Shown in pieces: positions 9,201-12,200 of a stretch of 64,000 nt of DNA. The position numbers were made by a program. Origin of the DNA: Escherichia coli O157:H7 (GTDB taxonomy: Bacteria; Pseudomonadota; Gammaproteobacteria; Enterobacterales; Enterobacteriaceae). Numbering within the stretch: the first letter of the stretch is position 1; every line of letters begins with the position of its first letter. The DNA lies in NCBI RefSeq assembly GCF_013167455.1, contig NZ_CP038328.1, one strand, 5' to 3'.

Positions 9201-12200
9201 GCGGCCCAGTCAATACCCACCTGAATGATGCTAAGCCCGATAGAAGTAATAACCACACCGGTAACCAGTGGCGGGAATAAAGGCATCAAGCGACCGATAA
9301 GTTGCGCTAATAATGTGGTGATAAAACCCGCGGCGATAGTGGCACCAAATATACCCAGCAGGCCGATATCCGGGTTCATCCCAATGGCTATCATTGGTGT
9401 TACAGCAGCAAAGGTCACCGACATAATCACCGGCAGGCGGATCCCCATAAAGCGGCCGATACCGATACATTGCAATAATGTGACGATCCCGCAGCAAAAG
9501 AGATCCGAGCTAATGAGCATCGCAATAGCTTCTTTTGAGAGGCCCAGTCGGTCACCAATCATAAGAGGAACAGCGACTGCACCTGCGTACATGACAAGGA
9601 CGTGTTGCAGACCGAGTATGATCAGCTTTCCTGGTGATAATATGCGGTCAACCTCATCAGTTGGGCGGTCTTGCCCAGAAGATGAGGGAAGTTGGGAATC
9701 TATGGCGCTCATCAGTGTTTCTCCTTTCGCCCGCCAGAGTAAAAAGCAACCGTTTACGTTAATGAAACTGTCTAAACACATGCTCGTGGAGTGCCAGTTT
9801 TTGCGAGGAAGGGGAGTTAGAGACAGGAATTGCGGAGGCAATCACATAATCGTGCTTAAACTACGAAAATGACAAGAGAACCTGACAATGGAATTATCTG
9901 TAATTTTCTCATATTGATATTTCATTAATCATTCTGGCATGTCGCACTCTCGCATTTAATCGTTTTTATCTGGATAGCGCTATTTGGGGCGGCAATGTTG
10001 AAATAATGAAAGCGGCATAGATTGAGGGGCAATAATTTGAACTCAGTCGCAAAATTATAATTAAAACGGTCATGCTACCTAATATATGCCCGTTTATTGC
10101 ATCGCGAAATTTGAGAAGACATAACTCATTAAATGAAAGGGATGCAAATGAATAAGTTTATCGCTGCTGAAGCCGCGGAATGTATAGGCTGTCATGCTTG
10201 TGAAATTGCCTGTGCGGTGGCACACAATCAAGAAAACTGGCCGCTGAGTCACAGTGACTTTCGACCACGTATCCACGTTGTAGGGAAAGGCCTGGCTGCG
10301 AATCCGGTGGCCTGCCATCACTGCAACAATGCCCCTTGCGTTACGGCTTGTCCGGTTAATGCTCTGACTTTCCAGTCCGATAGCGTACAACTGGACGAGC
10401 AAAAATGTATTGGTTGTAAAAGATGCGCAATCGCTTGCCCCTTTGGCGTCGTTGAGATGGTCGATACGATTGCGCAGAAATGCGACCTTTGTAACCAGCG
10501 CAGTTCCGGCACGCAAGCCTGTATTGAAGTTTGCCCAACACAGGCGTTACGACTGATGGACGATAAAGGGTTACAGCAGATAAAGGTGGCCCGCCAGCGC
10601 AAAACGGCAGCAGGAAAAGCGTCATCAGACGCTCAGCCATCTCGCAGTGCAGCGTTGCTCCCCGTTAACTCGCGTAAAGGCGCAGATAAAATTTCAGCAA
10701 GTGAACGGAAAAACCACTTTGGCGAAATCTATTGCGGGCTGGATCCACAACAAGCGACTTATGAGAGTGACCGCTGTGTTTATTGTGCCGAAAAAGCTAA
10801 CTGCAACTGGCATTGCCCGCTGCATAACGCTATTCCGGATTACATCCGTCTGGTACAGGAGGGAAAGATTATTGAAGCGGCAGAACTTTGCCACCAGACC
10901 AGTTCCTTACCAGAAATCTGCGGCAGGGTATGTCCACAGGACCGTCTTTGTGAAGGCGCATGTACTTTGAAAGATCACTCTGGCGCAGTCTCTATCGGTA
11001 ATCTGGAACGCTACATCACCGATACCGCGCTGGCGATGGGCTGGCGTCCCGATGTCAGCAAAGTTGTTCCCCGTATCGAGAAAGTGGCGGTGATTGGCGC
11101 TGGGCCTGCAGGGTTAGGGTGTGCTGATATTCTGGCGCGCGCAGGAGTTCAGGTCGATGTCTTTGATCGCCATCCAGAAATTGGCGGTATGCTGACTTTT
11201 GGCATTCCTCCTTTCAAACTCGATAAAACGGTATTAAGCCAGCGGCGAGAGATATTCACCGCAATGGGAATCGACTTTCATCTTAACTGTGAAATTGGCC
11301 GCGATATTACCTTTAGCGATTTAACTTCTGAATATGATGCAGTTTTCATCGGCGTGGGGACTTACGGGATGATGCGAGCAGATCTGCCGCATGAAGATGC
11401 GCCCGGTGTCATTCAGGCTCTACCGTTCCTGACTGCCCATACCCGCCAGCTCATGGGATTGCCGGAGTCTGAAGAGTATCCGCTGACGGACGTGGAAGGT
11501 AAGCGAGTCGTGGTATTGGGCGGTGGCGATACGACAATGGATTGTTTGCGGACTTCCATTCGCCTCAATGCTGCCAGCGTGACCTGCGCGTATCGTCGTG
11601 ATGAAGTCAGTATGCCGGGCTCGCGCAAAGAGGTGGTCAATGCGCGCGAGGAAGGTGTCGAGTTTCAATTCAATGTTCAGCCGCAATATATCGCTTGTGA
11701 CGAAGATGGGCGTTTAACTGCGGTGGGCCTGATTCGTACCGCCATGGGTGAGCCGGGGCCGGATGGTCGCCGTCGTCCTCGTCCGGTTGCGGGTTCAGAG
11801 TTTGAATTGCCCGCCGATGTTCTCATTATGGCCTTTGGTTTCCAGGCGCATGCCATGCCGTGGTTGCAGGGCAGCGGAATTAAACTCGATAAATGGGGCC
11901 TGATTCAAACCGGTGACGTCGGGTATTTACCTACCCAGACGCATCTGAAAAAAGTCTTTGCTGGTGGTGATGCAGTTCATGGCGCGGATCTGGTTGTCAC
12001 TGCAATGGCCGCAGGAAGGCAGGCGGCGCGCGATATGTTAACTCTGTTTGATACGAAGGCATCGTGATGAAATCGTTAATTATCGTTAATCCGGCTGACT
12101 GTATTGGCTGCCGTACTTGTGAAGTGGCCTGTGTGGTCGCTCACCCTTCATAACAGGAGTTGAATGCCGATATCTTTTTACCCCGGCTGAAGGTACAGCG

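Follow-up and report, generated by a model that had tools for sequence, protein, structure and literature searches.

YgfS of Escherichia coli has been grouped with HydN, YsaA, HycB, HyfA, AegA, and YgfT as paralogues (PMC6004506), and ygfT (also named uacF) and ygfS are treated as a single operon to which PurR binds and which responds to uric acid by induction (PMC3159470; PMC12623156). The ygfS locus described here has the same location, the same length of 489 nt, the same overlap with ygfT, and the same four cysteine motifs as K-12 ygfS (b2886; product WP_000838428.1) and the O55:H7-type allele (product WP_000838411.1). The 2019 work of Iwadate and Kato reportedly implicates AegA and YgfT in formate-dependent anaerobic urate degradation. 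In subunits of the DmsB/FdnH/HycB type, each cluster takes its ligands from two motifs.

The DNA that we analyzed, referred to as the window, was a stretch of 64,000 nucleotides from an O157:H7 strain (assembly GCF_013167455.1, contig NZ_CP038328.1). A preliminary description of this DNA had proposed that the gene was ygfS, that its frame ran for 28 residues from the ATG at 12067 to a TAA and then stayed open, and that the stop cut the protein after its first Cys cluster. Direct translation bore out the frame and placed the stop behind the first CxxCxxCxxxC motif, and both the position of the gene between ygfT and ghxQ and its RefSeq name agreed with the identification as ygfS. The read-through length of 162 codons was also that of K-12 ygfS (489 nt), in agreement with the preliminary description. 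The features of the locus are as follows.

10148 to 12067, plus strand: ygfT (uacF), intact, 639 aa (from the ORF list and the RefSeq annotation).
12067 to 12555, plus strand: ygfS, the probable pseudogene, as its full ancestral 162-codon frame plus stop (from translation of the frame and 100% identity to O157:H7 genomes).
12067 to 12150, plus strand: leftover 28-codon ORF with Cys motif I (C12, C15, C18, and C22).
12151 to 12153, plus strand: premature ochre codon TAA, Glu29 to stop, from a G→T change at 12151 (from alignment to intact alleles).
12154 to 12552, plus strand: 133 in-frame codons past the stop with Cys motifs II to IV (C55 to C67, C86 to C96, and C117 to C133).
12562 to 12585, no strand assigned: putative GC-rich hairpin terminator in the gap separating ygfS from ghxQ; its 9-bp stem has 7 GC pairs, and the minus strand is the one on which it was scored.
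12591 to 13958, minus strand: ghxQ, intact, convergent to ygfS.

The ygfS frame opened with the ATG at 12067-12069, continued through 28 sense codons to the TAA, and then ran through another 133 sense codons up to the TGA at 12553-12555. A mechanical ORF list split the gene into two entries, 12064 to 12153 and 12160 to 12555. Because the ygfT stop codon (TGA, 12065-12067) overlapped the ygfS start codon, the two genes are predicted to be translationally coupled and to form one operon. The gene order at the locus was uacT, ygfT, ygfS, ghxQ, guaD, and xanQ. Thus, ygfS was the final gene of the ygfT-ygfS operon, followed on its 3' side by the terminator and then by ghxQ, and since the operon has no genes downstream of ygfS, no polar effect of the stop would be expected.

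To describe the intact protein, we used the translation of the window allele with the stop codon repaired. The repaired YgfS contained 16 canonical Cys residues in four motifs at residues 12-22, 55-67, 86-96, and 117-133; the product translated up to the TAA retained motif I only, with three of the four motifs removed by the stop. The Pfam families Fer4_11 and Fer4_9 covered residues 50-140. The best NCBIfam matches were the N-terminal modules of AegA (1.9e-48) and YgfT (6.2e-40), followed by HydN (2.6e-39). In the case of the HydN equivalog (NF007658), the repaired protein scored 134.6 bits against a curated cut-off of 260. Because the scores lay far under the equivalog cut-offs, YgfS is a paralogue and not AegA, YgfT, or HydN itself. 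The nearest solved structure by sequence was HycB of formate hydrogenlyase (7z0s chain B, E=3e-31), and residues 1-157 of the adjacent YgfT were 46% identical to the repaired protein over its whole length, with all 16 Cys residues aligned. Together, the NCBIfam, Pfam, HycB, and YgfT comparisons showed full-length homology to characterized members of the HydN/HycB type. By these comparisons, the ancestral YgfS is a predicted HydN/HycB-type, four-[4Fe-4S] ferredoxin-like protein. It matched the HydN/HycB/YsaA group and the AegA and YgfT modules over its full length, whereas the O157 product would correspond to the first 28 residues only.

In alignments, three strains had GAA (Glu) at codon 29, namely K-12, 1604D011 (a pig isolate), and 2013C-4465 (O55:H7-type), whereas the window and strains PV15-279 and LSU-61 had TAA. 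All 489 of 489 columns aligned to intact orthologues without gaps, so the in-frame stop at codon 29 interrupts an otherwise collinear frame of 162 codons. The window DNA and K-12 ygfS differed at no more than 8 of the 489 positions, one of which is the base that turns GAA into TAA. At two residues, the O157/O55 allele has Ile36 and Cys48 where K-12 has Val36 and Ser48. K-12 has AGC (Ser) at codon 48 (12208-12210), and the O157, O55:H7-type, and pig-strain alleles share TGC (Cys); Cys48 is a 17th cysteine that lies outside the four cluster motifs. The preliminary description had expected orthologues of 162 codons with CAA or another sense codon at this position. The length and the sense codon were as expected, but the codon proved to be GAA and not CAA. 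A CAA→TAA transition was therefore rejected in favor of a G→T transversion at 12151.

The distribution of the variant base was examined in 5,426 complete E. coli genomes. Specifically, a 55-nt query centered on the variant base was searched via megablast, which needed an exact 28-mer, so the query could seed only in genomes carrying that base. The T version matched 297 of the 5,426 genomes, all at 100% identity, and the G version matched 4,838 genomes of the same collection. Among the matches listed, all T carriers with a serotype were O157:H7 or O157; they included Sakai, EDL933, EC4115 (in which the variant base is position 3871475), LSU-61, and PV15-279. This seeded search found no T carrier outside the O157 lineage, and the G and T searches of the complete genomes revealed no parallel inactivation at codon 29 in other lineages. 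The entire 489-nt ygfS stretch of the window was 100% identical to many O157:H7 chromosomes. In addition, 241 of the 5,426 genomes had no megablast match to ygfS, which suggests that ygfS may be absent or highly diverged in some E. coli lineages.

These counts bear on two doubts that the preliminary description had raised about its own claim. The first was a sequencing or assembly error in the window, and the chance of this is negligible because the identical T was present in 297 independent complete genomes from several platforms and countries. The second was that orthologues might share the TAA and use a separate downstream start; no such orthologue was found outside the O157 lineage. A stop in a collinear, full-length frame, a sense codon in relatives and in the wider species, and agreement among independent assemblies are the marks of a nonsense pseudogene, and ygfS of the window displayed each of them. 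We put the probability at roughly 0.93 that ygfS is here a lineage-specific pseudogene that was created by the single nonsense substitution G→T at 12151, with the predicted loss of YgfS in O157.

When the T in the window allele was changed back to G, the sequence was identical at 489 of 489 positions to ygfS of exactly nine genomes. Seven of these were labelled O55:H7 (CB9615, RM12579, USDA5905, DEC5A, DEC5D, DEC5E, and TB182A), which is the progenitor lineage of O157, and the other two, 2013C-4465 and FDAARGOS_946, had no serotype label. The nonsense change is therefore the sole ygfS substitution since an O55:H7-like ancestor. The O157 branches that were sampled were LSU-61, the β-glucuronidase-positive (GUD+) clone, and typical O157:H7; German SF O157:NM, available as draft genomes, lay outside the collection. 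LSU-61, a sorbitol-fermenting, GUD+ O157:H7 strain, has been described as an intermediate, with O55:H7 on one side and the diverging branches of NSF O157:H7 and SF O157:NM on the other (PMC7175801), and PV15-279 belongs to an early-branching GUD+ O157:H7 clone (PMC6256406). All of the sampled O157 branches carried the TAA. Its presence in LSU-61, in PV15-279, and in typical O157:H7 places the origin of the ygfS stop, judged by the sampled branches, on the stem at the base of the O157 lineage.

The frame past the stop was perfectly kept, as would be the case if the TAA were read through or suppressed, by programmed recoding or a suppressor tRNA, and full-length YgfS were still made. We regard this as extremely improbable. 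Programmed recoding calls for a conserved stop with an accompanying signal, but the ygfS stop was confined to one clonal lineage, and it came from a single recent SNP in an otherwise unchanged gene, which leaves no co-evolved recoding signal. In addition, the ancestral Glu29 was an ordinary residue in a variable linker that aligned to a gapped region of HycB. The codon is also UAA and not UGA; selenocysteine insertion uses UGA together with a SECIS element, E. coli ribosomes read through UAA only at a very low basal rate, and UAA is not known to be a recoding codon in this species. The open and unchanged state of the downstream frame is itself uninformative because the O157 lineage is too young for decay.

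If the stop is effective, as the nonsense reading holds, ribosomes coupled from ygfT would begin at 12067 and end translation at codon 29. Because clusters in proteins of this type are ligated from two motifs each, a 28-residue peptide with one motif could not hold a cluster. This product, with one of the four Cys motifs, would be unable to assemble the cluster-binding fold and would presumably be lost, and the 133 codons downstream would not be translated to any useful extent.

A different outcome would be a split gene, with translation restarting after the TAA at the TTG at 12160 (Leu32) or at the GTG at 12223 or ATG at 12226 (Val53/Met54) and yielding a C-terminal, two-cluster ferredoxin of 109 to 131 residues. 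The intact frame past the TAA would allow this, the TTG lies 7 nt beyond the stop with an AGGAG at 12155-12159, and motifs II and III might in principle ligate two clusters. However, the AGGAG touches the TTG with zero spacer and fits the out-of-frame ATG at 12164 better. It also simply encodes Gln30-Glu31 and occurs in every intact allele, which means that it did not arise as a signal for restarting translation. The GTG at 12223 and the ATG at 12226 have no purine-rich element upstream; when all in-frame ATG, GTG, and TTG codons past the TAA were examined, none had a usable Shine-Dalgarno spacing. Furthermore, without motif I, a fragment would be short of three ligands for one cluster and a single ligand for another, and the split arrangement was not seen in any other lineage in the genome searches. 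We consider such a restart very improbable. In the same region, the AGGAG is followed 4 nt on by the out-of-frame ATG at 12164, which opens an 8-codon ORF (MPISFYPG); this arrangement (12155-12190, plus strand) is also present in the intact alleles, and the 8-codon ORF after the premature stop is probably meaningless.

By the nonsense reading, O157 cells would lack YgfS, the stand-alone electron-transfer partner encoded with YgfT, a formate-dependent uric acid utilization oxidoreductase. YgfT was unchanged: O157:H7, LSU-61, and two strains with the repaired allele all have the same annotated protein (WP_001322328.1). We would expect the loss of YgfS to have a mild phenotype, in which formate-linked utilization of urate is affected modestly at most, because YgfT keeps its own 46%-identical N-terminal module and E. 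coli has further paralogues (AegA, HydN, YsaA, and HycB).

The presence of the TAA in every sampled O157 branch could also mean that the same mutation was fixed by positive selection, with the loss of YgfS being adaptive, for example through an altered electron flow from formate to urate in the ruminant gut. The operon belongs to an island for the anaerobic catabolism of purines and urate, a function with relevance to metabolism in the gut, and this would fit the idea. A clonal lineage, however, fixes alleles without selection, and about 122 chromosomal pseudogenes are found in Sakai alone (PMC6256406). The remaining genes of the urate island (ygfT, uacT, xdhD, ygfK, ssnA, yqeB, and yqeC) were intact in the window, which argues against a directed loss of the pathway, and the lack of parallel inactivation at codon 29 in other lineages also counts against selection. 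Thus, adaptive fixation seemed unlikely. The chance is slimmer still that the loss of YgfS was not neutral and changed how formate dehydrogenase H passes electrons to YgfT, altered anaerobic purine and urate catabolism, and helped O157 to adapt to the ruminant gut, or that the C-terminal 109 to 131 residues are made again as a new, shortened ferredoxin with two clusters. Drift, or hitch-hiking as the O157 clone emerged, most likely fixed the nonsense allele.

A broader decay of the urate island was considered and rejected because the yqeC lesion was specific to PV15-279 and yqeC of the window was intact. In PV15-279, an IS1203/IS629 element splits this selenium-cofactor gene at the site corresponding to 26270-26273 of the window (yqeC, 26021-26791, plus strand), and the window has no IS element there.

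The ygfS pseudogene is already known in the sense that it is flagged by public genome annotation. PGAP lists ygfS of PV15-279 and LSU-61 as a pseudogene of a 4Fe-4S dicluster domain-containing protein with an "internal stop." In the curated Sakai record, ygfS (ECs_3758) is likewise entered as a pseudogene, but only its 3' 270 nt are marked. The Sakai record (NC_002695.2) also names the gene upstream of ygfS (582-2989 of the extracted stretch) aegA; by its position and PGAP naming, this gene is ygfT. A literature search with the O157 ygfS locus tags (ECs3758, Z4225, and Z4226) returned only unrelated papers, and a further one on O55 and O157 gave no results.

Other lesions were observed in the window and in related strains. 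The ETT2 type III secretion gene sctT (54497-55264, plus strand) had an in-frame stop at codon 150 and was 100% identical to the PV15-279 copy, which PGAP labels with an internal stop. An ETT2 gene of the prgH/eprH family (57509-58689, plus strand) contained frameshifts and several stops and was identical to a PV15-279 gene that PGAP flags as a pseudogene. At the ETT2 edge, a lytic transglycosylase gene (62146-62649, minus strand) was an intact ORF of 167 codons in the window and was frameshifted by a 1-nt deletion in PV15-279. Straight translation of prfB (4798-5896, plus strand) gave an in-frame stop after codon 25; this gene is well known for its programmed +1 frameshift. Beyond the range of the window, LSU-61 carried a frameshifted yggR (1003-1981) and an internal stop in srsR (34161-35057; both in coordinates of the extracted LSU-61 stretch), and both genes are flagged as pseudogenes.

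A parallel to the ygfS stop among the lineage-marker pseudogenes of O157:H7 is the uidA frameshift of typical O157:H7, which has been described previously (PMC6256406). Like that frameshift, the ygfS stop is a small, single mutation that turns off a metabolic gene, passes down the clone, and can serve to mark the lineage. The uidA loss came later, and the GUD+ clone to which PV15-279 belongs still has an intact uidA, whereas the ygfS stop is older and was already present in PV15-279 and LSU-61. Also unlike uidA, no phenotype is associated with ygfS.

The ygfS stop is an ordinary lineage-specific nonsense pseudogene that matters little beyond bookkeeping. As a SNP, it is a clean marker of the O157 lineage because it is not in O55:H7 genomes and is present from LSU-61 onward. 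In addition, O157:H7 would offer a natural ygfS-null background for defining the role of YgfS, and because O157:H7 is predicted to lack this partner of YgfT, results obtained with K-12 on formate-dependent urate utilization would not be directly transferable to O157:H7.
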